Assembly (NCBI GenBank): GCA_024408235.1
Contig: JAKSVF010000001.1
Location: 29,417 to 93,416 of the forward strand
Length of the DNA: 64,000 nucleotides
DNA from: Bacilli bacterium
Lineage (GTDB): Bacteria > Bacillota_I > Bacilli_A > RFN20 > CAG-826
Direction: 5' to 3'
Part shown: piece after piece, positions 3-49,338 of the stretch
How the letters are laid out: every line of letters starts with the position of its first letter
How positions within the stretch are numbered: the first letter of the stretch is position 1
Notes under the pieces: generated by a model
Database searches by the model: none
Seen by the model: the letters and a program-made list of their open reading frames with translations, nothing else
Told to the model about the DNA's origin: nothing
Program-made: the position numbers and the translations under genes

Positions 3-3000
3 ATAGCCGACTCTGGAATGGATGCATTTAAGAACGCTAACAAGGATTACATCTACACAGCCAACAAAGATGAACTGAGATATGAAAATAGACAGCTCAT
101 CAGAATTCTTGAAGCTGCAGTCGATCCTGTCTATGGAGTCATCGCTAATGATGGTGCCGTTAAGGAAATCAAGATCTCAGACGTTGACGCTTACTACTTA
201 GTGAACCCTCTCCTCAAGTCATTGGCAGAATCTCACGTCTTTAACTCCTTGTCCGATAAGCAGATTGCGGAAGGTGTTAGTATGACCGCGTTGGAGAAAG
301 AATTCTCATCGCTTTTAGGTTCGGCTTCCCTCTTTGAAAGCAAGACGAATGCAGACAAAGCGGTTTTAAGCGTGACAAAAGGCGTTACATCGTTTGAACA
401 TCGTGCAAATCTTTGGGACGATGAGATTGATCAGGTCACCAATGTCCTTACATCAATCCAGGATTTAGACATCGATCTCAATAATTTCTCGTTCGACAGC
501 ATCTTCCCAGATGGCAAGGATGAAGCGAAGAGACAAAAGCTCGAGAATATGCTTTTGAGCATCAATAACTCTCAGATTCTCCACTCAGTTCTCCCATACC
601 AAATCAATAAATCTGTTGATACCTTGGCGGATAGCCTTGGTTCATCATTCACACTCACGAATGTTAACGCCTACTACACCGGATATGATTCTGATGGTTT
701 AGCAAATAGATATGATGATGCGGAAATCGTTAATTTCTCATATATCATCCAAGATGGCTTAACAATGGGCGAACTTGATATGTCTTCGATGCATGGCGAC
801 CAGATCGATACTGTCATGTCATTGTTGAAGAGAATCGCTTCGAGCAACGTTTTCAACACAATCAAGGAGCCTGCATCAACCTATGAGATGACCGCTTTCG
901 AAAGCTTGTATTATCAGGCTATCGAACAAGCTAATGTTTTCGATGACATCAATCAGTTAAAAGCGTCTATTTTCCACGTAACAAACGGAGCTAGAACTGA
1001 CTTATCCGTCCTTGGTTCGCGCGCAGCTTCTTGGGAAAATGAAATCGATACCCTTCACCAGGTCTTCCTCGACTTTGATGGCCTCGGATTCCAAATTGAT
1101 AATTTCGATTACAATTCTCTCGATGAGTCCAGGGATTCAGAGCTTGCTACATTACTTGATGATGTGGACAAATCAATCACAATGCATTCAATGCTTCCTT
1201 TGAAGATCGAGGCTGCAATTGATGAAGTCGATGATTCGCTAGGAGAAGGTGTTTCTCTTGGAGTTGCTAACACAAGATACAAAGGCACATCTATTTTATC
1301 TTATGGTGATGGTCTTACTGTTGAGGTTCCAAATGCTTATGACGATTACGATGAATGTGAACACATCGCCCGAATCGTAAATAGAGGCTTGCATATGGGC
1401 TCGGTGGATTTAAGCGCCGGATCAACGGATACCAAATTCATCGACTTACTTATTGAGATGGGTCACTCTAACGTATTCAACACCTTGCCTGATAATAATT
1501 ACGGAATTGACCTCACTTCATTAGAAACTGTTTTCTCAACATCGGTTAAAAAATCGGGTATCTATTCTGAGAAGGAAGCTCAGGCATCCGCTTTGCTCGT
1601 TACCAACAAATCCTCGGACCTCGCTTTGAGAGGTGATTTATGGGAAGAGGAACTCGCCTATGTCCGTGCAACAATCAATGCGTTATCGGAAATCGATTTA
1701 GATATCGAGCACTTTGATTTATCAGCTCTTTTCACAGGCGGTCCAGAAGATGAAACGACTAGACAGAAAATGGTCACCCTCCTTAATTCATTAAGCGATT
1801 CTAAGACACTTCATTCTGTTGCCCCTATTAAACTTAGAACAACAATTGACTCCTACAAGAGTTCTTTGGCCGCTGGTCAGGTTTCTTTTGACAACGCAAA
1901 CTACGATTACAACGGCAAAGTGATATATGAGTTCGATGATACCTCATTAGGAAATGTCACATTACCAAACGCCTACGGATACGACGAAAACGAGGCTTTG
2001 TCATACATCATCATGGAGTCTTCAAATCTTCCAGATCAGAATCTTGCTGATTTAACATCCATCGACAGAACTCCATATATATCCCTATTAAAGAGACTTT
2101 CAGCAAGCCACGTTTTCAATACGCTTGAAGAAGGACTTACGCATTCTCCAAATCTCCTAACAGCATTCGAAAACACATATGTAAGCATTCTTGATGAAGG
2201 CAACGTTTATGAGCATTATGCAGAGCAAGAGCTTGAAGTTGATAGAATTGCCACATTTGAAGCAACTAAGGGCGTCTCCAATTTCGACAATATAAAAGCG
2301 ATTTGGGATGATGAACTCGATTTAGTCGAACAGATCATCACCGATTATCAGACATGCGGATTTACAATGACATCCATCAACATTGCAAACCTCTTCCCGG
2401 CATCTGCAACAGAAGAAGAAGCGGAACTCAGCAGAATGAACTTACAGGAATTGATGGATGACGTAAACTCGTCACTCACCCTCCATTCAACCCTCCATCG
2501 CACGGTCAATGAAGCTATTGATAAAGTCAGTGACAAGATGGGTGGAGATTCGATGGACAACGCAAATGTCTACTTCACCGGTTACTCGGTACCTGATAAA
2601 AAGCTTGGTAACTACTACACCGACGAGGAAGTTGAGAAACTCTCCTATATTGTTAAAGGCTGCATGAGAATGCCTGATGTCGACAAGAGCGACATTGGCT
2701 CAATCGATGCATCTAAAGTTACGGATTTGCTTGCTCATTTAGCAACAAGCCAAGTATTCAACTCACTTAAGGATGGAGAGCCATTTACCGCATTTGATAA
2801 CGCCTATGCCACCCTCATGACAACGGATGGCTTAAACGATGTCTATTACCATGCTCCAAACCCGGTTGATAAAGACGCTATTTATTCAACTTCAGCCGAT
2901 AAGGCTAAGGTTGTTGCAAGGTCAACATGGACACCTCTTACTTTATCCATTGATATCGATACATATGATGTTTCAAATATCAACGGTAACACTGGTTCAT

Positions 3001-5114
3001 TGCAGTACGTCTTAGAGTACTTTGTTGATCCGTCTAACTCAGACGTCATGGATTCACTTAATGGCGAATTCTCGTCTTTAACTGGAGATAAGATCTATGA
3101 TTCACTTACTAGGTTGAACTCGTGCGAATTAACAAAGGACATGGTGCCTAACATCATCGATAAGACAATTAACGATCCATCTTTCTCCCTAGGCTCAATC
3201 AACATCAAGAGAGCAAATCCGTTCTATTGTTACAATGGATTATGGGGTAATAAGTATGATGACGATGAAATCGAATGCATCGCAAACATCATAACCGCTA
3301 ATAACAACATGAAGGATAGTGGTGGACATAGCATCTTCGCTAACCTCGGCTCGGCTACTATTACTCATTCAACGGTTGTCGAGTTAAAGAACTTGATGGA
3401 TGCAATGAACGAAAGCCAGGTATTCCATTTGTCAGGTGCTAGATCAGGCGCTGAATTCTTTGATTCAACAGTCGCTGCTTGGAAAGAGCCATTGACCGCA
3501 TTTGAACAGATCTTAGGAACTATCTATGAAGAGTCCAACCTCGCTTCTCTAGCATATAACTCAACTAGAGATGCATATGCTTCTTGGAGCGAGAAACTCT
3601 CTGCTCGAATGGGACACTTCCGCGATGGAAACCTCGAATCTCTCCACGGCGCAGTCGCCAATAGATATGAAATCGAAGTCGAAGCAATCTGCAACTTGAT
3701 TGATGTTGCTATCGACCTTGACCTATTGTCATCAGGTTTGAGCCTCGGTTCATTTGAACTCGGTTCATTCTCACCTGAACAAGTCAGATTCTTATCTAAC
3801 GCTCTCAACATCGTTGACATGGTTTCAGACGCTCTTCCAAATAAGATAGATTCATTCGTTAAGACAACAGGCGTTGATAAATACAATGCCGTTGATGTAA
3901 TGGGCGAAAAACTCGATATTGCCAATTACTTCCTCTCTCAAGAACAGATGAGGGATGGCGCTATCGATTCTATCTACACCTTCTCAAATTCAATTTACGA
4001 ACCGGCTGAATATGATACTTTAGGCAATAAGACCAAGGATGCTAAGTACACTACATTCACAGGTCCTGATGCAGTGAACATGTCTGAGTGGATTCTTGGC
4101 GAAGGAAAGTTCTCCTCAATATTGAAATTCATTGATGAGCCAAACGGTTTCTATGCGTCATCGCATTACACGGCTACCCCATTAGACGGTTCAAGCCTTG
4201 CCGCCATCAATGCTGCAACAGACACCTATGACTTCACAGCGAGAGATGCATTCTTCTATAACATCTCCTCATTCAGCGTTGCTGGAGAAGTTCTTAACCT
4301 CGGTTCATACCTCGGAGCGGGTGACTCGTTGCTACTTGATCTTAAGGGCTCTAGAGACGCGTTTGACCACGTCGAGAAAACTGACGCATCTTACTTAAGC
4401 GAAGAAATGTCCATCCACTCAACAATGATCGATCTTGGAACAATATACGTTGCCCTTAATGCATCGTCATCACTTGGAACTCTTCCAACTCACTTAGCTG
4501 AGTTTGAAATGTTAGCAAGCGACCTCGCATATTCAAGCGTTGAATCATTGTTCACATACTTCGGCACAAATAGCTCATCTCTATCCGGAAGATATGCTTC
4601 AGGACTTTTAGAAGAACCTGTTCATAAAGCTAACTCCTACATCAACGGCAACTCTTACTTCACCGCTCTGTTCGACGCTACAGGCCTCCCATACCCATCA
4701 AGCTATATGGATGGCGCCTCGGTTAGAACCCGTTCGTCCTACGATGAAGGATCTACATTAAGCACATACTCCATCTACTCAGATAACGGCTCGGATTTAA
4801 GAAGCGAAGATGTAAAGGATGCCTACATGAGCATGCTTAGAATCGTGAAGGAAATCGGCATTGGCGCATTAACGTCAAGCCACACAATTGATACCGTTTC
4901 CCTCAACTCTGCGTTCTCAACAATCGACTCCCTCGTATCAAATCCACGAGTCAGCGCATTAACAAAGTTATTCTATCTCTCATCCACATATGACTATCTC
5001 CTCAACAGAGGCGCATTCCACGGCGAAGTCCTCCCATTCCTGAGTGAGATTGATGTGCCAAATCCGTTCGATTCGGCCTTCACTTATAGTGGATTATCCT
5101 CATTCATCGCTTAA
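3..5114 (+). CDS. giant acidic modular repeat protein, C-terminal >=1698 aa (probably 5'-truncated by the window edge)
   Basis: The frame is open from nt 3 with no stop before the first ATG at 18, and no SD precedes that ATG. The stop is TAA at 5112-5114. The protein is D/E/S/T-rich and K/R-poor. It contains six divergent tandem modules (see repeat feature). I see no LPXTG, TM helix or known catalytic motif in the visible part. Confidence 0.85.
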   Translation: MADSGMDAFKNANKDYIYTANKDELRYENRQLIRILEAAVDPVYGVIANDGAVKEIKISDVDAYYLVNPLLKSLAESHVFNSLSDKQIAEGVSMTALEKEFSSLLGSASLFESKTNADKAVLSVTKGVTSFEHRANLWDDEIDQVTNVLTSIQDLDIDLNNFSFDSIFPDGKDEAKRQKLENMLLSINNSQILHSVLPYQINKSVDTLADSLGSSFTLTNVNAYYTGYDSDGLANRYDDAEIVNFSYIIQDGLTMGELDMSSMHGDQIDTVMSLLKRIASSNVFNTIKEPASTYEMTAFESLYYQAIEQANVFDDINQLKASIFHVTNGARTDLSVLGSRAASWENEIDTLHQVFLDFDGLGFQIDNFDYNSLDESRDSELATLLDDVDKSITMHSMLPLKIEAAIDEVDDSLGEGVSLGVANTRYKGTSILSYGDGLTVEVPNAYDDYDECEHIARIVNRGLHMGSVDLSAGSTDTKFIDLLIEMGHSNVFNTLPDNNYGIDLTSLETVFSTSVKKSGIYSEKEAQASALLVTNKSSDLALRGDLWEEELAYVRATINALSEIDLDIEHFDLSALFTGGPEDETTRQKMVTLLNSLSDSKTLHSVAPIKLRTTIDSYKSSLAAGQVSFDNANYDYNGKVIYEFDDTSLGNVTLPNAYGYDENEALSYIIMESSNLPDQNLADLTSIDRTPYISLLKRLSASHVFNTLEEGLTHSPNLLTAFENTYVSILDEGNVYEHYAEQELEVDRIATFEATKGVSNFDNIKAIWDDELDLVEQIITDYQTCGFTMTSINIANLFPASATEEEAELSRMNLQELMDDVNSSLTLHSTLHRTVNEAIDKVSDKMGGDSMDNANVYFTGYSVPDKKLGNYYTDEEVEKLSYIVKGCMRMPDVDKSDIGSIDASKVTDLLAHLATSQVFNSLKDGEPFTAFDNAYATLMTTDGLNDVYYHAPNPVDKDAIYSTSADKAKVVARSTWTPLTLSIDIDTYDVSNINGNTGSLQYVLEYFVDPSNSDVMDSLNGEFSSLTGDKIYDSLTRLNSCELTKDMVPNIIDKTINDPSFSLGSINIKRANPFYCYNGLWGNKYDDDEIECIANIITANNNMKDSGGHSIFANLGSATITHSTVVELKNLMDAMNESQVFHLSGARSGAEFFDSTVAAWKEPLTAFEQILGTIYEESNLASLAYNSTRDAYASWSEKLSARMGHFRDGNLESLHGAVANRYEIEVEAICNLIDVAIDLDLLSSGLSLGSFELGSFSPEQVRFLSNALNIVDMVSDALPNKIDSFVKTTGVDKYNAVDVMGEKLDIANYFLSQEQMRDGAIDSIYTFSNSIYEPAEYDTLGNKTKDAKYTTFTGPDAVNMSEWILGEGKFSSILKFIDEPNGFYASSHYTATPLDGSSLAAINAATDTYDFTARDAFFYNISSFSVAGEVLNLGSYLGAGDSLLLDLKGSRDAFDHVEKTDASYLSEEMSIHSTMIDLGTIYVALNASSSLGTLPTHLAEFEMLASDLAYSSVESLFTYFGTNSSSLSGRYASGLLEEPVHKANSYINGNSYFTALFDATGLPYPSSYMDGASVRTRSSYDEGSTLSTYSIYSDNGSDLRSEDVKDAYMSMLRIVKEIGIGALTSSHTIDTVSLNSAFSTIDSLVSNPRVSALTKLFYLSSTYDYLLNRGAFHGEVLPFLSEIDVPNPFDSAFTYSGLSSFIA
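18..3872 (+). repeat. six divergent tandem protein-level modules (~204-221 aa, ~610-665 nt period) inside the giant ORF
   Basis: The anchor motif LL+xxAxS[HNQ]VF[NH] recurs at nt 231, 843, 1467, 2106, 2748 and 3411 (aa 72, 276, 484, 697, 911, 1132). Each module also carries TAFE/TAFD, W[DE][DEN]E[IL]D, a DxxNF/HF stretch, [IT][LM]HSxxP...ID...SLG and N[AV]xxY..G..YDDxE. The repeats are visible at protein level only. The nucleotide copies are diverged. Confidence 0.8.
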
Positions 5115-5727: not shown

Positions 5728-7013
5728 TCCCTTCAAACGAATACGCAGCTAGAAGACAAAGAATTCTTTCCGTCATGGAAGAAGACAGCATCATGGTCCT
5801 TTTCTCAGGTGTTGAGAAGATGTCTAGCGCAGATGAAACATACCCATTTGAGGTTAACCGCAATTTCTATTACCTAACTGGTATCGACCAGCCAGACTCA
5901 AGTCTTATCTTGGTCAACACGGATGGCGAAATAAGAGAATTCTTATTCGTCTCGCCATTTGATCCTGTTAAGGAGAAATGGTATGGCAGGAGATTAACAC
6001 TCCAGGAAGCCGCAAAAATATCCGGAGTCTCAAATGCTCAGGTGAACACAATTGTCATGGATAAGGTTGCCGGTATTCTTGATCCAACTCTCGCTCAGTA
6101 TGGTGAAGTCAGCCATATTTATTTAGACCTCGAGCCTGAAATCAAGATTGCCGAAGAAACAACGACCAGAGATTATAGAGACACAATCAAACACACCTTC
6201 CCTAACGTTGAAGTGCTTGATGCATATCCATTGATAACCACTCTCAGATTAAGAAAATCCAACAAGGAAATCGAAGAATTGAGAAGCGCTATCCGCACAA
6301 CAAAACTCGGCGTTTATTCCGTCATGAACGCAATGAAGGAAGGCAAGAGAGAATTTGAGATGGCAGACTTGTTCCTCCACACAGTAAATGACGACAACTG
6401 CTATCAGGGCCTCGCTTTCCCAACCATCATGGCTGCAGGCAAAAACGCTACATGCTTACACTATAGAACCCTCCAGGGAGTTATGCATGATGGCGATCTT
6501 CTCCTTATGGATTTAGGAGCTAGAAACGGTTACTACTGTGCTGATGTTTCTCGTACAGTCCCAGTATCTGGCAAATTCACCAAAGAGCAGAAAGAGATTT
6601 ACAACATCGTCTTAGGCGCTAATAAAATGGTCGCTAAGATGCTTAAGCCTGGAGTGACAATCGAAGAGCTTCAACAGGCGACAATCATGTACTTGGCTGA
6701 TGAGTGCTTGGCAAAAGGCTACATCAAGAAGAAAGAGGACATCATGGAATACTATTACCACGGTGTTTCCCATTTGATCGGTCTTGATACGCATGACGCT
6801 TACTTCGCTCCTAATTCAAGGGAATCGAAGAAATTGAAACTAGAGCCTGGAATGATCATCTCCAATGAGCCTGGCTTATATATGGCCGATAGAGGAATTG
6901 GCATCCGCATCGAAGATGACTTACTCGTCACCGAAGAAGGCTGTGAAGTTTTAACTGCTGAAATCATCAAAGAAGCCGATGACATCGAAGCGTATTTAGC
7001 CACAAAAAGATAA
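5724..7013 (+). CDS. Xaa-Pro aminopeptidase (M24B family)
   Basis: Shows M24 metal-ligand motifs DLGARNGYYCADVSRT, HGVSHLIGLDTHD, SNEPGLY and IRIEDD. An AAAGGAGG SD precedes the start. The start overlaps the yigZ stop in an ATGA junction. Confidence 0.85.
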   Translation: MIPSNEYAARRQRILSVMEEDSIMVLFSGVEKMSSADETYPFEVNRNFYYLTGIDQPDSSLILVNTDGEIREFLFVSPFDPVKEKWYGRRLTLQEAAKISGVSNAQVNTIVMDKVAGILDPTLAQYGEVSHIYLDLEPEIKIAEETTTRDYRDTIKHTFPNVEVLDAYPLITTLRLRKSNKEIEELRSAIRTTKLGVYSVMNAMKEGKREFEMADLFLHTVNDDNCYQGLAFPTIMAAGKNATCLHYRTLQGVMHDGDLLLMDLGARNGYYCADVSRTVPVSGKFTKEQKEIYNIVLGANKMVAKMLKPGVTIEELQQATIMYLADECLAKGYIKKKEDIMEYYYHGVSHLIGLDTHDAYFAPNSRESKKLKLEPGMIISNEPGLYMADRGIGIRIEDDLLVTEEGCEVLTAEIIKEADDIEAYLATKR

Positions 7014-7022
7014 TTAGAGACG

Positions 7023-7050
7023 AAGCTCACAATAATGTGGGCTTTTTCTT
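7023..7050 (+). terminator. rho-independent terminator after the aminopeptidase gene
   Basis: The stem AAGCTCAC/GTGGGCTT has 8 bp including one G-U pair. The loop is AATAAT and a TTTTTCTTTTT run follows. Confidence 0.65.
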
Positions 7051-7078
7051 TTTCTCATAGAGTTTATAATAAACTCAT

Positions 7079-8560
7079 ATGAAGAAATATATCTTGGCTG
7101 TAGACCAGGGCACCACATCGACACGTGCCATTTTAATTAACAAAAAGGGCGAGGAAGTATACAAAGCTCAGCGTCCTGTCGATTGCTATTTCCCAAAAGC
7201 GGGATGGGTTGAACAAAGCGCGGACAACATCTGGGTTTCGGTAGTTGATGTCATCAACGAGCTCATGATTGTGAGCAGCGCTAAATGGGAGGAGATTGCC
7301 GGCATTGGTATAACCAATCAGCGTGAGACTACCATCGTGTGGGACAAGTCAACCGGAAGAGCTATCCACAACGCCATCGTTTGGCAATCAAAGCAAACAC
7401 AGAAAATCTGTGACCGTTATGAGAAAAAGAAGACGTTTATAGCTGATAGGACAGGCCTTAGGTTAAACCCATATTTCTCCGCGTCTAAAATCAGATTCAT
7501 TCTTGAAGCCGTACCAGGCGCTGAGGAGAAAGCCAAGAAAGGCGAGCTGATGTTCGGAACAATCGAGACATGGCTTATCTACAAGATGACTAACGGGGCA
7601 GTTCATGCAACTGATGTATCTAATGCCTCGCGTACTGCGATATTTAATATATATGATATGAAATGGGATGAGGAACTTTGCAAGCTCTGGAAGGTCCCAA
7701 CCTCTATGTTGCCTGAAGTAAAAGATTCTTCCTGTGACTTTGGCGAAGCTTCATTCTTCCCTGGCCACGTCCATATCTATGGCGTTGCAGGAGACCAGCA
7801 GTCTGCCTTATTTGGCCAATGCTGTTTTAAAGAAGGCGAATCAAAAAACACATATGGAACCGGTTGCTTCATGCTCATGAATACCGGCGAGAATCCAATC
7901 AAAACCAAATCCGGCTTATTAACTACAGTCGCTTGGCGAATCAACGGCAAGACAACTTACGCCCTAGAAGGTTCAGTCTTCATTGGCGGTGCTGTAGTTC
8001 AGTGGGTCCGTGATCAGACTAGATGGATTGAAGACTCAAGAGATTCTGAGTACTATGCATCAAAAGTGAAAGACACGGCGGGAGTGTACTTTGTACCTGC
8101 TTTCGTTGGATTAGGAACCCCATATTGGGATGATGATGCTAGAGGCGCAATATTCGGTCTTACAAGAGGCGCTGATAGACATCACATCACTAGAGCGGCC
8201 ATCTATTCAATTGCTTATCAATCCAAAGATGTAATTGATACCATGAGGAAAGACGCCAACCTAGATCTCCCTGTTCTGAAAGTTGATGGCGGCGCATCTG
8301 CAAACGCAATGCTTATGCAGTTCCAATCAGATATTCTTCAGTGTGAGGTCCGAATCCCTAAGAACGTTGAAACAACGGCCTTAGGCGCCGGTTACTTAGC
8401 TGGTCTTGCCTGCGGATTCTGGAAAGACTTAGCAGAAATTGAGAAGAACGTGGGTATCCAAAGACGTTTCTTCCCGACAATGGATCCAACTGAGGCTGAT
8501 AAACTTTGTCGCGGATGGGCGAAAGCCGTTATTGCTACGCGTGCATTCAAGACCGAGTAA
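7079..8560 (+). CDS. glpK: glycerol kinase
   Basis: The N-terminus is MKKYILAVDQGTTSTRA. FGGY-family motifs are present throughout (GITNQRETT, YGTGCF, DGGAS). The length is 493 aa. Confidence 0.95.
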   Translation: MKKYILAVDQGTTSTRAILINKKGEEVYKAQRPVDCYFPKAGWVEQSADNIWVSVVDVINELMIVSSAKWEEIAGIGITNQRETTIVWDKSTGRAIHNAIVWQSKQTQKICDRYEKKKTFIADRTGLRLNPYFSASKIRFILEAVPGAEEKAKKGELMFGTIETWLIYKMTNGAVHATDVSNASRTAIFNIYDMKWDEELCKLWKVPTSMLPEVKDSSCDFGEASFFPGHVHIYGVAGDQQSALFGQCCFKEGESKNTYGTGCFMLMNTGENPIKTKSGLLTTVAWRINGKTTYALEGSVFIGGAVVQWVRDQTRWIEDSRDSEYYASKVKDTAGVYFVPAFVGLGTPYWDDDARGAIFGLTRGADRHHITRAAIYSIAYQSKDVIDTMRKDANLDLPVLKVDGGASANAMLMQFQSDILQCEVRIPKNVETTALGAGYLAGLACGFWKDLAEIEKNVGIQRRFFPTMDPTEADKLCRGWAKAVIATRAFKTE

Positions 8561-29361: not shown

Positions 29362-31563
29362 ATGCAATTAGTGAGCGTCTTAACACAGTATGGAGCTCGT
29401 GCATTAGCGCGAACTTTTTCTTATGTGTACTTTGGCAAGAAAAAAGTTGCTGAGCGTTTTAGAGTAAGAATCAACTTTAACGGTAAAGAAATCATGGGCT
29501 TTGTAACAGAAGTTCAGGTTGTCGATAAAACCCAAAATGAGCTTGAACAGGAGTGCGGATACGCAATAAAAGAGATTTACGAGTCAGACATCATTGATGA
29601 GGAACCTCTTATTAATGATGAATTGATGGAACTCGCCAATCAGGTTGCCGATTATTACATGGCGCCTCTTATCTCTGTTCTTCAGGCAATGCTCCCAAAG
29701 ACATTATCGCCAAAGATGTCATCATTGAAGGGTCCTAAAATCGCATATGAGAAGTGGGCCAAGGTTATAGATCAAAATGAAGACGGCCTTACACCAAAAC
29801 AAATAGAAATGTTGAGGCTCATCGCATCGAATGGTGATGTTCTCAAGAAAGAGTGCGGATCACCTGCGATTCTTAAAGCGTTAGAAGATAAGAAGAAAGT
29901 GCTTATTTTTAATAAGGAGAAGATGAGATTCGTTCTTCCTCCTGAAGAAAGAGAAAATCCGCATGAGATGTCTCTTGAGCAAAGAAGCGCATATGACACA
30001 ATTCTTTCTGCGCAGAAAGATGTTGTACTACTTCAGGGTGTTACTGGTTCTGGTAAAACCGAGGTATATCTTAGAGTATCGGAGAAATATCTCGAGGATG
30101 GAAAGACTGTTTTAATGCTTGTTCCCGAGATTAATCTCACCCCTCAGATGGTCGAGTATTTTTCACGCAGATTCGGGCCAAAAGTCGCGATTCTTCATAG
30201 CGAGTTGACCCCAGGGGAAAGATATGACGAATATCGTAGAATCGCGCAAGGCAAGGCTCAGATTGTTGTGGGGGCTAGAAGTGCGGTTTTCGCTCCGTTA
30301 AACAACATCGGATTAATCATCTTAGACGAAGAACACGTCGAGTCATATAAACAGGATAATTCTCCATATTACCACGCGAGAGAAGTCGCCATTATGAGAG
30401 GCAAGATCTCTAATGCAAAGGTGTTGCTTGGTTCTGCTACGCCTACTCTTGAGACAAAAGCTCGCGCTATGAGAGGCGTCTATGGTTACGCTGAGATGAA
30501 AAATAGAGTCAATAAGCGTCCTCTTCCTAAGACTCAGATCATAGATTTATGCAATAGATTTAACTACGATAAAAAATCCGAAAAGATCACAAAGCCTGTT
30601 TTACAGGCTATCCAAGAAAGAATCGGAAGAAAAGAACAGTCATTACTTCTCATCAACAGACGTGGATACTGGACCGCCATAAATTGTCCTCAATGCGGAT
30701 ACATTTTCGCTTGCCCTCAATGCGGAGGCAATCTTACATACCATGTTCACGACCACATGCTCAAATGCCATCACTGCGGTGAAGTCCAGATTCATCCTGA
30801 CAAATGTCCTGGCTGTGGTTATACCAAATTAAGAAGAGTTGGATATGGGACGGAACGAATTGTTGAGGAACTTAAAGAGATTATTCCAGGTTGTAGAGTG
30901 GCAAGAATGGATTCTGATGTCAGCCAAGTTTCCAAAAAAATGGAAGAGACTTTGAAGGCATTTAGAAACGGTGAATACGATATCCTTGTCGGAACTCAAA
31001 TGATTGCAAAAGGACATGACTTCCCTAACGTCACGCTATCAAGTGTTGTTATGGCAGATATCGGATTATCTCTGCCTACATATCGCGCGGCGGAGAGAAC
31101 CTTCCAGCTGATCGCGCAGGCTGTTGGAAGAAGTGGTCGCTCATCAAAAGAAGGTGTCGCTTTCATACAGACTTATAACCCTAAACATTATGCCATAACT
31201 CTCGGTGCTACCCAGGATTTTGAAAGATTTTTCATTCGCGAAATGAATGAGAGAAAGCTTACCCAATACCCTCCATATGTCTATTTAATCCTACTTGAAT
31301 TCGCTTCTGCTAATGAAGAAAAATGCGTAAATGCAGCTTATGACATTAAGACAGCTCTAGAGGATAAAAACCTCGACACATTGACGGTTGTTGGACCGAT
31401 TACCCCGTTCTATTCGATGATAGCAGGAAAACATAAGAGAGTCGTTCTTCTAAAAATGAAGAAACGCGAACCTGTTGTCGAGGCCTTAAAAGACCTTTTA
31501 TCATCGCCTATTTCTTCAGGCTCCGTCGACATTTCAATCAACGTTGACCCATTAGATTATTAA
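29362..31563 (+). CDS. priA: primosomal protein N' (replication restart helicase)
   Basis: Shows the Walker A GVTGSGKTEVY, the DEEH box and the Zn-finger region CPQCG...CPQCGG...CHHCG...CPGCG. The length is 733 aa. Confidence 0.93.
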   Translation: MQLVSVLTQYGARALARTFSYVYFGKKKVAERFRVRINFNGKEIMGFVTEVQVVDKTQNELEQECGYAIKEIYESDIIDEEPLINDELMELANQVADYYMAPLISVLQAMLPKTLSPKMSSLKGPKIAYEKWAKVIDQNEDGLTPKQIEMLRLIASNGDVLKKECGSPAILKALEDKKKVLIFNKEKMRFVLPPEERENPHEMSLEQRSAYDTILSAQKDVVLLQGVTGSGKTEVYLRVSEKYLEDGKTVLMLVPEINLTPQMVEYFSRRFGPKVAILHSELTPGERYDEYRRIAQGKAQIVVGARSAVFAPLNNIGLIILDEEHVESYKQDNSPYYHAREVAIMRGKISNAKVLLGSATPTLETKARAMRGVYGYAEMKNRVNKRPLPKTQIIDLCNRFNYDKKSEKITKPVLQAIQERIGRKEQSLLLINRRGYWTAINCPQCGYIFACPQCGGNLTYHVHDHMLKCHHCGEVQIHPDKCPGCGYTKLRRVGYGTERIVEELKEIIPGCRVARMDSDVSQVSKKMEETLKAFRNGEYDILVGTQMIAKGHDFPNVTLSSVVMADIGLSLPTYRAAERTFQLIAQAVGRSGRSSKEGVAFIQTYNPKHYAITLGATQDFERFFIREMNERKLTQYPPYVYLILLEFASANEEKCVNAAYDIKTALEDKNLDTLTVVGPITPFYSMIAGKHKRVVLLKMKKREPVVEALKDLLSSPISSGSVDISINVDPLDY

Positions 31564-31656: not shown

Positions 31657-32166
31657 ATGATCACCATTTCTTTATTAGGCTTAGACCAATACGTGGCTGG
31701 CCACTACAGCAAGACGCACACAGAAAATCTCGCTCAGCTTTTCGAAGTTGATGAAGACGCAGTATCTTTCTATGCGCCAAATTCCATCATTATTCACAAT
31801 GGAGTAGAACAGACTTCATGGAACACCGAAGTCAGAGTTCACCTTCCTACAAAGTTCGCACCACTTGAAGAGAAGGTTGCCGATTACCTTATCCAGACCC
31901 TTAAGGAAATCACAATTAACATGAACATAACATTCGAGTATTACGAAGAGGCTAGCCACTACGAATACCAGAATGATGAATACCCTAAGTTCATCAGAGC
32001 CGACAACATCGTCGACATGGATGACCCATACGCAGAAGAAAACGAAGAGGAATACGATGGACCAACTCCAGAGCCTTACCTCGGAAATATATTCGCCGGC
32101 AAAGAGGAAGAGTTAGACGCTAAATATAGCGCTGATGAAGAATACCTCACTGAAGAAGATAAATAA
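31657..32166 (+). CDS. hypothetical protein with strongly acidic C-terminal tail
   Basis: The ATG at 31657 is preceded by a GAGGA SD at 6-nt spacing. The in-frame ATG at 31639 lies only 5 nt after the -10 hexamer, so the alternative start is 31639. The tail is rich in E/D/Y (EENEEEYDGP...EEYLTEEDK). Confidence 0.6.
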   Translation: MITISLLGLDQYVAGHYSKTHTENLAQLFEVDEDAVSFYAPNSIIIHNGVEQTSWNTEVRVHLPTKFAPLEEKVADYLIQTLKEITINMNITFEYYEEASHYEYQNDEYPKFIRADNIVDMDDPYAEENEEEYDGPTPEPYLGNIFAGKEEELDAKYSADEEYLTEEDK

Positions 32167-32179
32167 TGGGGAGAATAGT

Positions 32180-33499
32180 ATGCAGACATTAGATATTTGT
32201 GAAGCAGTATTAACAGACGTTCTTGCCAATGACGTCTCATTCGCTGACGCTCTCAAAAAGGTCTTTAAATCAAGCGTTGACCTCCGCCCTCAGAGAAATA
32301 CAGTCGCATCTTTGGTTGGATGTGAACTTCGTCACCATCTTCTCTTCTCTTATCTCTTGAAGCCAATTGAAGTTTTGACTGATGAAGAAAAGAGACTTGT
32401 CTCTTTATGTCTTGCTGAGTATTACTTCTATCAGAGACTCAACAAAGATGAAGTCGATAGCCACCTCCTTGCAAAACTTGGAGAAGAAAAAATTGAACTC
32501 CTCAAACCGTTATTCGATAAATCGGGTAAGCCTGAGGAATACATCCCAGCTGAGATATCAAAATCAAGCAACAAGTACTTATCATTAAGATACAACACCC
32601 CAGAATGGGTTCTTAAGATCATTGAGCATTATGGTTTCGGAACAACGTACAAAGTATTAAGAAAAAATGCTCAGCAGAGAATCTCGACCGTCCGTGTTAG
32701 AGAAGGCTTTGATAAGAATACAATAGATCCTAACGCTTTCAAAGGCTCACCTGTGCCAGGTATTTATTACTATCAGGGCAAGGAATCCCTAAGAAAACTA
32801 GAAGCCGCCAAAGAAGGCAAGATCTTCAATGAAAGACTAGCGACTAAATTTATCTTAGATAAATACAGAGTCAGCGATCCTTCAGAACTTTTCATCTTTG
32901 ATGGAAATGGCGATGGTTCAATCTTCAAAGAAGCAATCGAAACCTACGGCACAAAGATCGGAATGAACTTTGGAGTCTATTCCGAAGACAAGTATGCAGA
33001 TGTCGCTAGAATGATTAGAACCGAAGGCTTAAAGAACATTAACTACTTTGCAGCTGATCCAACATTCCTTGATGCAGCTATCTCTCGCCCACAGGATTTG
33101 GTAATCGTATCGCCTAAATCCACAAACTTTGATTTGATTAGAGAACAGCCAGATTATCTTCTTCACTTCAAGAAGAGCGAAATGGATGAACTCTTTAGAA
33201 AAGAGAAAGAAGCGCTTGAAGGCGTTTCTAAGGTTGTCGCAGATGATGGACTCCTCATCTACATGGTTTACACAATCAGCAAGAAAGAAGGCCACCAGAC
33301 GATCTCCGAATTCTTGCTCAACCACACAGAATTCAAGTTCGTTAAAGAAGAACAGCTCTTCCCTCAGGATGAACTCGACACAGCAATGTACTACGCTGTT
33401 CTCAAAAAAGAAGAGAATGCTATCATTCTTGATAACCCAGCATCATTGGCTAACCCATTAGAGGGAACGGCCTTCGCTATGTCAGCAAAGGAAAGATAG
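32180..33499 (+). CDS. RsmB/Sun-like protein (NusB-like N-domain plus degenerate m5C RNA methyltransferase fold)
   Basis: The position between priA and rlmN is that of rsmB. The fold blocks align to RsmB: FIFDGNGDGS (motif I region), LVIVSPKSTNFDLIREQPD (motif IV region) and GLLIYMVYTISKKEG (motif VI region). Neither catalytic Cys is present. The start at 32180 has a GGGGA SD. Confidence 0.6.
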   Translation: MQTLDICEAVLTDVLANDVSFADALKKVFKSSVDLRPQRNTVASLVGCELRHHLLFSYLLKPIEVLTDEEKRLVSLCLAEYYFYQRLNKDEVDSHLLAKLGEEKIELLKPLFDKSGKPEEYIPAEISKSSNKYLSLRYNTPEWVLKIIEHYGFGTTYKVLRKNAQQRISTVRVREGFDKNTIDPNAFKGSPVPGIYYYQGKESLRKLEAAKEGKIFNERLATKFILDKYRVSDPSELFIFDGNGDGSIFKEAIETYGTKIGMNFGVYSEDKYADVARMIRTEGLKNINYFAADPTFLDAAISRPQDLVIVSPKSTNFDLIREQPDYLLHFKKSEMDELFRKEKEALEGVSKVVADDGLLIYMVYTISKKEGHQTISEFLLNHTEFKFVKEEQLFPQDELDTAMYYAVLKKEENAIILDNPASLANPLEGTAFAMSAKER

Positions 33500-33503
33500 A
33501 ATC

Positions 33504-34553
33504 ATGAAGAAGAATCTCTTTGGTTTTTCGCTTCCTGCTTTAGAAGAAGAAATGACAAGCCGTGGAGAAACTCGTTATAGAGCAAGACAGCTTTATGAGT
33601 GGATTTACGTTAAAAAAGTCTATGACTTCTCGTTAATGACAGATATATCCAAGAATTTCAGAAAAGTTCTTGAGGAAGAATATTGCTTGGACTTGCCAAC
33701 AATTTTCACACGCCAAAATGCCGCTGACGGAACCGTCAAGTTATTACTTGAGATGGAAGATCATTCAAAGGTTGAGACGGTCCTTATGAGATATGATTAC
33801 GGCAATGTCATCTGCGTATCGTCTCAAGTCGGATGCTCAATGGCTTGTGCTTTTTGCGCCTCCGGAATTCTAGCCAAGACAAGAAACCTTACTGCATCGG
33901 AAATGGTAGGGGAAGTCATTCTTATGAACCAGTTACTTGCTGAAGAGGGTGAGAATATCTCCCATATCGTTGTAATGGGAACCGGTGAGCCATTTGACAA
34001 TTACGATAACGTAATGTCATTTGTGAGAGTCATGAATGAGCAAAGGGGCCTTGCGATTGGTGCAAGACACATAACCGTCTCCACATGCGGCCTTGTCGAT
34101 GGCATCAGGAAATACGCTAACGAGGGAATTCAAATCAATCTTGCGATTTCTCTCCATGCCCCAAATGATGAAATCAGAAATCAGATAATGCCAATTTCAA
34201 GAAAATACAACATGGATGAGCTTCTCGATGCAGTTAAATACTATGTTGAAACAGCAGGGCGCAGAGTCACTTTTGAATATATCATGATCAAAGGTCTTAA
34301 CGACTCAATTGAGAATGCTGATGAACTTGCTAGAAGACTCAGGGGAATTTTCTGTTACGTTAACCTCATTCCGCTGAATCCAGTTAAAGAAAAACCGTTT
34401 GAAAGAAGCGAAAATGTCCACGCTTTCAATAGGCGTTTAAACGATAAAGGTGTCAACTGTACTGTAAGAAAAGAGTTCGGTACAGATATTGATGCCGCTT
34501 GTGGACAACTCAGAGTTAAATATGAGAGGAAGGGGAAGAACTATGGCAACTAA
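33504..34553 (+). CDS. rlmN: 23S rRNA/tRNA m2A methyltransferase, radical SAM
   Basis: Shows YRARQLYEWIY, the radical-SAM cluster motif GCSMACAFCASG, GEPFDNYDNV and the C-terminal Cys in DIDAACGQL. Confidence 0.93.
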   Translation: MKKNLFGFSLPALEEEMTSRGETRYRARQLYEWIYVKKVYDFSLMTDISKNFRKVLEEEYCLDLPTIFTRQNAADGTVKLLLEMEDHSKVETVLMRYDYGNVICVSSQVGCSMACAFCASGILAKTRNLTASEMVGEVILMNQLLAEEGENISHIVVMGTGEPFDNYDNVMSFVRVMNEQRGLAIGARHITVSTCGLVDGIRKYANEGIQINLAISLHAPNDEIRNQIMPISRKYNMDELLDAVKYYVETAGRRVTFEYIMIKGLNDSIENADELARRLRGIFCYVNLIPLNPVKEKPFERSENVHAFNRRLNDKGVNCTVRKEFGTDIDAACGQLRVKYERKGKNYGN

Positions 34554-47347: not shown

Positions 47348-48721
47348 ATGGCAAATTTTAAGAAACTCGCGAAAGGCTATGAGAATAAAGCCGTCGCAAC
47401 ACTCAAACAGTTCATCAAAATCAATTCAGTTTATGATGCAACAACTTCAAAAGAAGGACAGCCTTACGGATGGGGAGTCAAGAAGGCTCTTGATTTCGTT
47501 GGCAAAATCGGAAAAGACTTCGGCTGGAAAGTCAACACGGTCAATGGCTATTGCACTGAGTTAACAATCGGAGAAGAAGGACCGCTCATCGGAATCTATG
47601 GCCACTCTGATGTTGTTCCAGCAACAGGTTCATGGACAACAGGCCCATTCAACCCTGATGAAAGAGATGGCGTCATCTATGGTAGAGGCGCCGCAGATGA
47701 TAAAGGCCCACTCGTTGCCGCAATCTATGCTACAAAATTACTTCAGGATGCTGGATTACTCAAAGGCTTTAGAGTCAAAATCGTTTCAGGTGGAGATGAG
47801 GAAAGAGGATCGTCCTGCCTCGATTATTATTTCAAGAAATTCAAAGGCGAGCATGCTAAATACGCATTCACACCAGATGCAGATTACCCATTAATCTACG
47901 CTGAAAAAGGAATGAGATCATATGTACTCACAAAGACATTAGATCTCGGTCCTATCACCGCTATGGACGGCGGAGTTGTTACCAATGCAGTCTGCGACTC
48001 CCTCTTAGTCACTTTGAAGACAAACAAGAAATTCGAAGAATACTTAAAGACTAATAACGTCCCATGCGACATCTCATCCAACGAGTTTATCACAGTTGTT
48101 AGATTCAAAGGAAAGTCAGCTCACGGCTCAACTCCAGAGAAAGGCATCAACGCTGCCGGCATCGCATTTAAGGCGATCGGCGAATTCTTCAAGATCAAAG
48201 ATTTACTCGACCTCGTTCCAGTCATCAATTCCGGAGACGGATCCTACTGGGGCGGAAACGTCACGTCAAAAGAACTTGGAGCGTGCTCATATAACTACGG
48301 CATCTTCAAGTACGAGAAGAGAACAAAACTCCTATCAATGACTCTTGACTTCAGATTTGGCGAAGACGCTAAGAGAGATGACCTTGTTGCTGCGTTAGTC
48401 GCAAAGACAGGACTCAAAGCAACTCCTTTAGGAGAAGGCCACGCTCACCTCTTATTCGATAAGAAATCACCGTTGGTCTCTACGCTTATGAAGGCTTATA
48501 AGAAAGAGACATTTGACTTATTTGCTAAGCCACTCGCAATCGGCGGTGGAACATATGCTAAGGAAGCTCCAAATTGCGTTGCATTCGGCGCTGTCTTCCC
48601 AGCAAATAGAGAAGCTCAAGGCAACATGCATGGCGTTGACGAATTCATCAGCCGCAAGGATTTCATGAAGGACATCGCAATCTACGCTCGTGCTATTTAC
48701 ATGTTAGGTAATTTAAAGTAA
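47348..48721 (+). CDS. pepV: M20-family dipeptidase (PepV/Sapep-like)
   Basis: Shows GHSDVVPA, GRGAADDKGP and GGDEERGS, with the C-terminal block GGGTYA. A TAGGAGA SD precedes the start. Confidence 0.8.
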   Translation: MANFKKLAKGYENKAVATLKQFIKINSVYDATTSKEGQPYGWGVKKALDFVGKIGKDFGWKVNTVNGYCTELTIGEEGPLIGIYGHSDVVPATGSWTTGPFNPDERDGVIYGRGAADDKGPLVAAIYATKLLQDAGLLKGFRVKIVSGGDEERGSSCLDYYFKKFKGEHAKYAFTPDADYPLIYAEKGMRSYVLTKTLDLGPITAMDGGVVTNAVCDSLLVTLKTNKKFEEYLKTNNVPCDISSNEFITVVRFKGKSAHGSTPEKGINAAGIAFKAIGEFFKIKDLLDLVPVINSGDGSYWGGNVTSKELGACSYNYGIFKYEKRTKLLSMTLDFRFGEDAKRDDLVAALVAKTGLKATPLGEGHAHLLFDKKSPLVSTLMKAYKKETFDLFAKPLAIGGGTYAKEAPNCVAFGAVFPANREAQGNMHGVDEFISRKDFMKDIAIYARAIYMLGNLK

Positions 48722-49338
48722 TGAGAGGCCGCTTCAAGAAATGGGCGGCTCCATACTTAGATGAGCATGATGGAGTCGTTCTTAAAGAAATAAAAACCGA
48801 AGATCCATATTTCCAGGCTGAAAAGATCTATTTAGAGGTCGGATCAGGCAAAGGCGATTTCGTATTGGGGCTTTCGACTAAAAGAGAAGGGAACTTTCTC
48901 GCTTTAGAAAGAGATGTCTCAATCTCTGGAATACTCGCTAAGAAGGTAGTGGAATCCGAAATCAAGAACATCAGAGTCATGAACGAAGACTTTGACAATG
49001 TCTACGAGGCGATTAATGGAAAACTCAAGTTTGACATCATCTTCTTAAACTTTTCTGACCCATGGCCAAAGAAGAAACACTGGAAGAGAAGATTAACAAC
49101 TAGAGTTCGCCTCCAGAATATGATGAATATCCTCAAAGACGGCGGAGAGATAAGAATCAAAACCGACAATGACGATTTATACGCTTTCACTAAAGAAGAG
49201 GCTGAGACCCTTCCTTTGGTAAAAATATTCGATACCGATAATTACGAATTCGATGACAGTGATGATGCGATGAGCGAATACGAGAGAAACTTCCGTTCAA
49301 TCGGCAAAAACATCAATCGCCTCATCTATAGAAAGTAG
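48721..49338 (+). CDS. trmB: tRNA (guanine46-N7)-methyltransferase
   Basis: Shows EVGSGKGDF and the NFSDPWPKKKHWKRRL signature. The junction with pepV is a TAATG overlap. Confidence 0.92.
   Translation: MRGRFKKWAAPYLDEHDGVVLKEIKTEDPYFQAEKIYLEVGSGKGDFVLGLSTKREGNFLALERDVSISGILAKKVVESEIKNIRVMNEDFDNVYEAINGKLKFDIIFLNFSDPWPKKKHWKRRLTTRVRLQNMMNILKDGGEIRIKTDNDDLYAFTKEEAETLPLVKIFDTDNYEFDDSDDAMSEYERNFRSIGKNINRLIYRK

Follow-up and report, generated by a model that had tools for sequence, protein, structure and literature searches.

A 64,000-nucleotide stretch of contig JAKSVF010000001.1 (assembly GCA_024408235.1, Bacilli bacterium; hereafter the window) carries a gene for a 439-amino-acid (aa) protein related to RsmB, the methyltransferase that forms 5-methylcytosine at position 967 of 16S rRNA (m5C967). 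We consider it probable that this gene is a positional rsmB orthologue turned into a maintained pseudo-enzyme, which acts non-catalytically in uncultured, genome-reduced gut Bacilli. Homology to the enzyme family and its fold are both present, the catalytic and cofactor residues are consistently absent in relatives, and the gene is intact and under purifying selection.

Homology and domain architecture

On profile and model evidence, the 439-aa protein is a remote RsmB homologue, its similarity being real though far under the family thresholds. It scores 66.7 bits with the NCBIfam RsmB model NF011494 (cut-off 319), 27.7 bits with TIGR00563 (cut-off 269) and 23.3 bits with Pfam PF01189 (cut-off 27), and so misses the threshold of each. 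The best match among solved structures is Pyrococcus horikoshii Fmu (2yxl), whose E value is 7.6e-6 when the query sequence is used by itself and 1.3e-10 when a family profile is used. Three canonical RsmBs (P0311-P0313), recovered by a search seeded with a distant low-GC family member, were aligned with E. coli RsmB (L001), and this alignment was compared by hhalign with an 82-sequence alignment of the family. The two match with a probability of 99.2% (E value 1.5e-19) over 391 aligned columns, starting from residue 6.

The 82-sequence alignment was also the input for an AlphaFold2 model, which has a mean predicted local distance difference test score (pLDDT) of 90.6 and a predicted template modelling score of 0.85; disorder is confined to the last 26 residues (414-439, pLDDT <50). 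A Foldseek search of the PDB with this model retrieved 2yxl (E value 1.2e-20) and E. coli Fmu/RsmB, 1sqf and 1sqg, with template modelling (TM) scores of 0.74-0.78 (0.76/0.78 for 1sqf) over 437 columns at 15% identity. RsmF, Nop2, NSUN4, NSUN6 and Trm4 follow among the lower-ranked matches. The RsmB architecture, comprised of a NusB-like N-terminal domain, a pre-domain and a Rossmann-fold domain, is thus found over the full length, in agreement between the model, Foldseek and hhalign (residues 6-411). The NusB-like domain holds the conserved blocks GLVGCELRHH and SLRYNTPEW. An earlier note on this DNA, made from the sequence alone, had described a NusB-like N-terminal half and a block-by-block alignment to RsmB, and both are supported by hhalign and by the Foldseek match to 1sqf. 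Profile alignment and structure modelling, which that note had proposed as checks, confirm homology and fold and correct the register of the motifs.

Catalytic and cofactor motifs

In RNA m5C methyltransferases, the cysteine of motif VI (C375 in E. coli) is the Michael nucleophile, and the cysteine of motif IV is needed for product release (PMC2836557). P0311-P0313 have both, in the sequences Y-S-T-C-T-L-N-K-K-E-N and D-V-P-C-S-G, along with CAAPGGK in motif I. In the hhalign comparison, canonical motif IV, D-V-P-C-S-G-[FY]-G-I-I-R-R-K-P-E, pairs with S311-P312-K313-S314-T315-N316-F317-D318-L319-I320-R321-E322-Q323-P324-D325. Here S314 (33119-33121) is the counterpart of the release cysteine (E. 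coli C325), and S311 that of the motif IV aspartate. The same register was obtained in the HMMER alignment to 2yxl and in an ungapped extension of the one to 1sqf. Canonical motif VI, Y-S-T-C-T-L-N-K-K-E-N, pairs with Y361-M362-V363-Y364-T365-I366-S367-K368-K369-E370-G371, again in agreement with HMMER alignments to 2yxl, 1sqf and 3m6u; the canonical segment YSTCTLNKKENE stands against YITYTLNKKEND in the family. Y364 (33269-33271) occupies the position of the nucleophile, E. coli C375, and T365 that of the serine or threonine following it, while a T-I-S resembling T-C-S sits two residues downstream. The earlier note had correctly read the AAA codon at 33116-33118 as K313 and the ATC codon at 33275-33277 as I366. 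It had also taken these two residues as equivalents of the catalytic cysteines, an assignment ruled out by the three HMMER alignments and hhalign, which place S314 and Y364 there instead.

Motif I, D-x-C-A-A-P-G-G-K-T, pairs by hhalign with I239-F240-D241, a gap of three residues, and G242-N243-G244-D245. The loss of this S-adenosylmethionine (SAM)-binding motif had been proposed before and is borne out, in the form of a three-residue deletion and not of mere substitution, and the motif is not conserved in relatives. The acidic position of motif II is ambiguous (S268 by hhalign), and relatives are without a conserved acidic residue at this position.

Cysteines occur in the protein only at positions 7, 48 and 77, all in the N-terminal domain, and residues 165-439 are cysteine-free. 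The absence of both catalytic cysteines therefore holds whatever register is adopted, as had been claimed. Because no cysteine is available in this segment regardless of register, the 439-aa protein, judged by its sequence, cannot perform canonical cysteine-dependent m5C chemistry.

Conservation in close and distant relatives

A word-index search gave 224 homologues. The best 120 of them, full-length and 45-93% identical, form with the query the close set (n = 121). In an exhaustive profile search, E<=1e-30 was reached by 188 clusters at 50% identity, E<=1e-10 by 991 and E<=1e-3 by 4708. The wide set consists of those representatives among the top 150 that are full-length, 129 in number.

Position 314 is serine in 118/121 and alanine in 3/121 members of the close set, and in the wide set it is S in 91, N in 29, C in 7 and G in 2. 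Position 364 is P, N, D, F or Y in the wide set, with cysteine in 0/129, whereas T365 and E370 are invariant. Of the two residues proposed earlier, position 313 is variable in the close set (N 52, D 45, K 11 and A 6, together 114/121), and position 366 is hydrophobic throughout (I 112, L 5, V 4). There is no conserved cysteine at any position of the catalytic half among the 121 close or the 129 distant relatives. The idea that the cysteines are merely hidden by misalignment, and would reappear in the correct register, draws some credit from the earlier register having indeed been wrong at both motifs, but this absence throughout the catalytic half and the cysteine-free residues 165-439 of the query make it barely conceivable.

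Two distant members, P0221 and P0231, each standing for one 50%-identity cluster, have a cysteine at position 367 (PTFCRNET and PTLCRNET), three residues past the nucleophile position. They are the only members with a cysteine in the motif VI loop, and it is probably incidental. As a candidate for a displaced nucleophile, C48 was considered and rejected. It is kept in 120/121 members of the close set, but in the wide family the position is C, S or A, and it pairs with the small residue, a glycine, that is invariant in the NusB-like domain of canonical RsmBs. From this pattern C48 is judged structural.

When GTDB species were scanned with one genome each, the close family turned up in at least 130 of them, and 80 loci were retrieved. 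These loci come from gut, faecal or rumen metagenome-assembled genomes (MAGs) where the source is given. Their titles are mostly Bacilli, Bacillales, Erysipelotrichaceae or 'Ca. Enteromonas', with some binned assemblies under unrelated names. Two cluster look-ups and the search with the distant low-GC member found no cultured host, only metagenome contigs and 'Bacilli bacterium' MAGs. We take the UBA and Enteromonas names to denote the GTDB order RFN20, presumably a genome-reduced, uncultured relative of Mycoplasmatales. Background on this group is available (PMC10868615). The proteins are named 'hypothetical' at NCBI, and many of them 16S rRNA C967 methylase or RsmB/RsmF family at JGI.

Purifying selection

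Ratios of nonsynonymous to synonymous substitution rates (dN/dS) were calculated by the Nei-Gojobori method for two pairs of loci, L003-L004 (dS 0.93) and the window with L002. The RsmB-like gene has a dN/dS of 0.024 in the former and 0.030 in the latter. Its neighbours in L003-L004 range from 0.008 to 0.050 (gmk, priA, rlmN, PP2C, kinase and rpe), with 0.073 for the gene directly upstream, and neighbours in the window-L002 pair from 0.016 to 0.114. Split by halves, the ratio is 0.019 for the N-terminal and 0.020 for the methyltransferase-like part. On average, relatives are likewise 55% identical to the query in either half, and 16% in the tail. None of the 80 loci has a broken reading frame. 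The 'dead' methyltransferase-like domain is as constrained as the NusB-like one, and, because dN/dS is low and like that of the neighbours in both halves, a decaying pseudogene is excluded.

The case for a functionless remnant, a pseudogene in progress, would be that every catalytic hallmark is lost and that related Mollicutes have dropped rsmB altogether. Against it stand, besides the intact frames and ratios of 0.02-0.03 equal to those of essential neighbours, the 45-93% identity maintained over at least 130 species and the very confident AlphaFold2 model, which leave it with a negligible probability. The claim of the earlier note that a pseudo-enzyme is retained here, and is not decaying, agrees with these values.

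Operon context and the upstream gene

The features discussed are located in Table 1. The open reading frame (ORF) of the RsmB-like gene is open in frame from 32135 to 33499 on the forward strand. The ATG at 32180 is preferred as the start over the in-frame ATG at 32135 on account of the Shine-Dalgarno sequence and the N-termini of homologues, all of which start with MQ[TE]LD. A single gene, of 169-175 aa, lies between priA and the RsmB-like gene. Rfam models detected no RNA families in the window.

Table 1. Positions of the RsmB-like gene, its domains and motif remnants, and adjoining features in the window
Feature	Position	Strand	Basis and remarks
RsmB-like pseudo-methyltransferase gene (putative)	32180-33499, stop codon included	+	439 aa; ORF, profile and fold matches to RsmB
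N-terminal all-helical NusB-like domain, residues 1-164	32180-32671	+	helices 2-163 in the AlphaFold2 model; hhalign to the canonical RsmB N-terminal half; conservation
Ferredoxin-like pre-domain and Rossmann-like methyltransferase-fold domain, residues 165-412	32672-33415	+	strand/helix pattern; Foldseek to RsmB, RsmF, Nop2, NSUN4; no Cys
C-terminal tail, residues 413-439, poorly conserved, predicted disordered	33416-33496	+	pLDDT <50 for 414-439; mean identity 16%
Motif I remnant, I239-S247 (IFDGNGDGS)	32894-32920	+	3-residue deletion relative to D-x-C-A-A-P-G-G-K-T; hhalign; positions vary across the family
Motif IV remnant, S311-P312-K313-S314-T315	33110-33124	+	hhalign; HMMER to 2yxl, 1sqf
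Motif VI remnant, V363-Y364-T365	33266-33274	+	hhalign; HMMER to 2yxl, 1sqf, 3m6u
Shine-Dalgarno sequence GGGGAG	32168-32173	+	6 nt 5' of ATG 32180; sequence read
DUF1904/tautomerase-fold gene, 169 aa (175 aa from ATG 31639)	31657-32166	+	weak Pfam DUF1904; AlphaFold2; Foldseek 4m1a
priA	29362-31563	+	upstream boundary of the conserved operon position; Pfam PriA domains, synteny
rlmN	33504-34553	+	begins 5 nt past the RsmB-like stop; Pfam RlmN_N and Radical_SAM, synteny

The order gmk, priA, small acidic protein, RsmB-like gene, rlmN, PP2C, Ser/Thr kinase, rpe is found in 80/80 loci, as far as their flanks reach, and recurs in four distant members (L082, L086, L087 and L088). In these distant loci a homologue of the small protein (hmmsearch E values 1e-43 to 1e-59) is situated 5' of the RsmB-like gene, directly adjoining it in 3/4. 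In L082, a Macro-domain gene (6869-7651) and two small ORFs lie between the two. The loci of the canonical P0312 and P0313 (L084 and L085) read gmk-rpoZ-priA-def-fmt-peptidase-rsmB-rlmN-PP2C-PASTA kinase-rsgA. This order confirms that the window gene holds the rsmB position while def-fmt has been replaced, and it upholds the rsmB slot between priA and rlmN that had been proposed from the sequence.

Other differences from the canonical operon can be seen when the segment 28741-36842 of the window is compared with L084 and L085. In this lineage no rpoZ separates gmk from priA, priA is not followed by def and fmt, and no rsgA stands between the kinase and rpe. The Ser/Thr kinase is without PASTA domains and has 293 aa, compared with 662-701 aa in the canonical loci.

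The small gene is located directly upstream of the RsmB-like gene wherever the flank is covered (77/80 loci), at the def-fmt site of canonical operons. Its 169-aa product has 134 database homologues, every named one being 'hypothetical protein [Bacilli bacterium]'. The first ~115 residues form a confident beta-alpha-beta repeat in the AlphaFold2 model, and Foldseek relates it to the tautomerase superfamily, with matches to the DUF1904 structure 4m1a (TMt 0.83, root mean square deviation 1.9 Å), 1u9d, MIF and cis-CaaD. The protein begins with M-I-T-I, without the catalytic Pro1, and past the fold come a linker of acidic character and a segment with conserved ELY-GN-FEG. A Cys/His-rich tail that resembles a metal-binding one closes many of the homologues but is absent from the window copy. 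A degenerate Def, considered as a candidate identity, is ruled out by the DUF1904/tautomerase fold.

E. coli Def and Fmt queries match nothing in the 64-kb window or the 80 loci, and these genes may sit elsewhere in the genome. Since neither was found there, the clade may have abandoned Met-tRNA formylation, like some Mollicutes, in which fmt and def were lost together (PMC4014445). Concerning a second RsmB or RsmF, the canonical RsmB profile matches a single ORF in the window, and likewise just one per locus in the 80 loci (±10 kb). The earlier note inferred loss of 16S m5C967 methylation by this protein; an organism-wide loss cannot be concluded from a 64-kb window and ±10 kb around relatives.

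Among the scanned ORFs of the window, the only other methyltransferase is a TrmB-like one (48721-49338, forward strand; Pfam Methyltransf_4, E value 8e-32), unrelated to m5C enzymes. An ORF of 1698 aa at 18-5114 (forward strand) has no Pfam match at E<=1e-5.

Possible function

In the reading we favour, the shape of RsmB has been kept, while the motif VI cysteine, the motif IV cysteine, the motif IV aspartate and the glycine loop of motif I are gone, and the protein would work through binding instead of catalysis. Blocks common to canonical RsmBs are kept outside the chemistry: PEW, F317 and I-R before P-[DE], Y361, and the [ST]-hydrophobic-[NS]-K-K-E turn after motif VI, with an R-x-N block retained in distant members as well. 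On the strength of these shared blocks, the likeliest target would be the ancestral substrate, i.e. the C967 region of nascent 16S rRNA or the pre-30S particle, where the protein may serve as a chaperone or placeholder, possibly acting jointly with the upstream acidic DUF1904-fold protein. From sequence features of this kind we infer an RNA- or ribosome-related binding role. The nucleophile was probably lost first and the motif IV cysteine later, because cysteines are scattered at position 314 (7/129) and there are none at 364. Motif IV mutants trap covalent adducts (PMC2836557), and a nucleophile-first loss would have avoided them.

Some observations weigh against this reading. The close family is acidic, with a median isoelectric point of 5.5 and a net charge of about -10, compared with isoelectric points of 6.1-7.9 for the three canonical relatives and E. 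coli RsmB, and this acidity lends an RNA-binding or assembly role no positive support. Several polar residues of the former cofactor pocket (N243, D245, S247, N263 and N286) hardly vary within the close family, which may point to a new ligand in place of an empty pocket. Finally, what connects the RsmB-like and DUF1904-like proteins is gene order and nothing else.

The same pocket residues bear on the proposal that the protein is still an enzyme with cysteine-independent chemistry, such as N- or O-methylation, or with another cofactor in a remodelled pocket. Its Rossmann-like fold is intact, and in the wide family conservation is highest in the loops that surround the former active site (P312, S314/S315, F317, P324-D325, Y361, T365, K369 and E370). 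However, pocket positions vary freely in the wide family, 243 being N/E/S/Y, 245 D/N/S and 311 hydrophobic, motif I has its three-residue deletion and no conserved glycines, the motif IV aspartate is lost, and no Pfam model of SAM-dependent methyltransferases matches except the sub-threshold PF01189. Because the entire cofactor pocket has degenerated together with the cysteines, we regard altered chemistry as improbable.

A non-catalytic role unrelated to 16S rRNA would make the protein an obligate partner or a regulator of the DUF1904-like protein, a NusB-like transcription factor working via the N-terminal domain, or an adaptor of the neighbouring PP2C/Ser-Thr kinase pathway. Of these, a role built around the upstream protein has to be taken seriously as a rival. 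The pairing with the DUF1904-like gene is invariant even in very distant relatives, the net charge is acidic, and the N-terminal domain is NusB-like by fold. On the other hand, both domains are equally constrained, including the RNA-methyltransferase-like half, and the canonical blocks PEW, I-R before P-[DE] and K-K-E after motif VI are preserved. Adjacency to the DUF1904-like gene is weak evidence, since the entire operon is conserved and not just the pair. We consider such a role unlikely on balance, though far less so than altered chemistry.

A bolder form of the favoured binding role joins the two proteins. A two-gene module, made of the Pro1-less acidic DUF1904 protein and the dead RsmB, may have replaced def-fmt-rsmB clade-wide, either as a joint non-catalytic factor of small-subunit assembly or quality control, or with a remodelled pocket that reads a ligand or a flipped RNA base. 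We put this forward tentatively, as a conjecture that may well prove wrong and to which we would give slightly more credit than to a role unrelated to 16S rRNA.

Significance

RsmB-type rRNA methyltransferases are individually dispensable in E. coli, and what the protein is worth beyond the methyl group is a long-standing question. The family described here offers a natural experiment, in which chemistry has been removed and the protein remains strongly constrained in many small-genome species; this argues for a methylation-independent function and makes the family a clean system in which to look for it. In practice, the C967 methylase names assigned at JGI would over-predict m5C967 in the clade, and the invariant DUF1904-like pairing at the def-fmt site provides a testable lead for both orphan proteins. 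If true, the two-gene module or the reuse of the pocket would be the first case in bacteria of an rRNA methyltransferase orthologue shown to persist for a non-catalytic role alone.

Pseudo-methyltransferases in general, and non-catalytic roles of rRNA methyltransferases in eukaryotes, are already known. The searchable literature yielded no account of a bacterial RsmB that is inactive, and a clade-wide, orthologous dead bacterial RsmB with a fixed partner gene appears undescribed.

Comparison with known systems

The closest known counterparts are E. coli RsmB/Fmu (the m5C967 methyltransferase, 1SQF/1SQG) and P. horikoshii PH0851 (2YXL), which have the same three-part architecture (TM 0.76-0.78) and can be aligned block by block; the operon site beside rlmN is shared with RsmB of Firmicutes. 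Differences from E. coli RsmB and PH0851 are the identity of only 15-17% and scores far under the family cut-offs. Compared with E. coli RsmB, the protein has Y364 in place of C375, S314 in place of C325 and S311 in place of the motif IV aspartate, and its motif I is three residues shorter.

Inactive methyltransferase folds kept for binding or scaffolding after losing catalytic and cofactor residues include METTL14, Trm6, DNMT3L and TFB2M, the last derived from KsgA/Dim1. These come from other families, most of them eukaryotic, and as a rule they work next to an active paralogue. Unlike METTL14-type scaffolds, the dead RsmB holds the orthologous position itself, with no active partner found in the window or the 80 loci.

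Within the NOL1/NOP2/Sun superfamily to which RsmB also belongs, Nop2/NSUN1 provides a non-catalytic precedent, and pre-60S Nop2 (8esq_q) is among the structural matches. Human NOP2/NSUN1 acts in ribosome biogenesis independently of catalysis (PMC9561284), and a catalysis-independent role of yeast Nop2 emerged from mutagenesis summarised in PMC2836557. Nop2/NSUN1, however, retain both cysteines and SAM binding and do methylate, whereas here evolution has stripped the catalytic apparatus away.

Most Mollicute groups (Pneumoniae, Hominis and Acholeplasma/Anaeroplasma/Phytoplasma) lost rsmB outright, which shows m5C967 to be dispensable (PMC4014445). In those related, genome-reduced descendants of Bacilli the gene is gone; in the family studied here it is kept, under strong constraint and without the chemistry.

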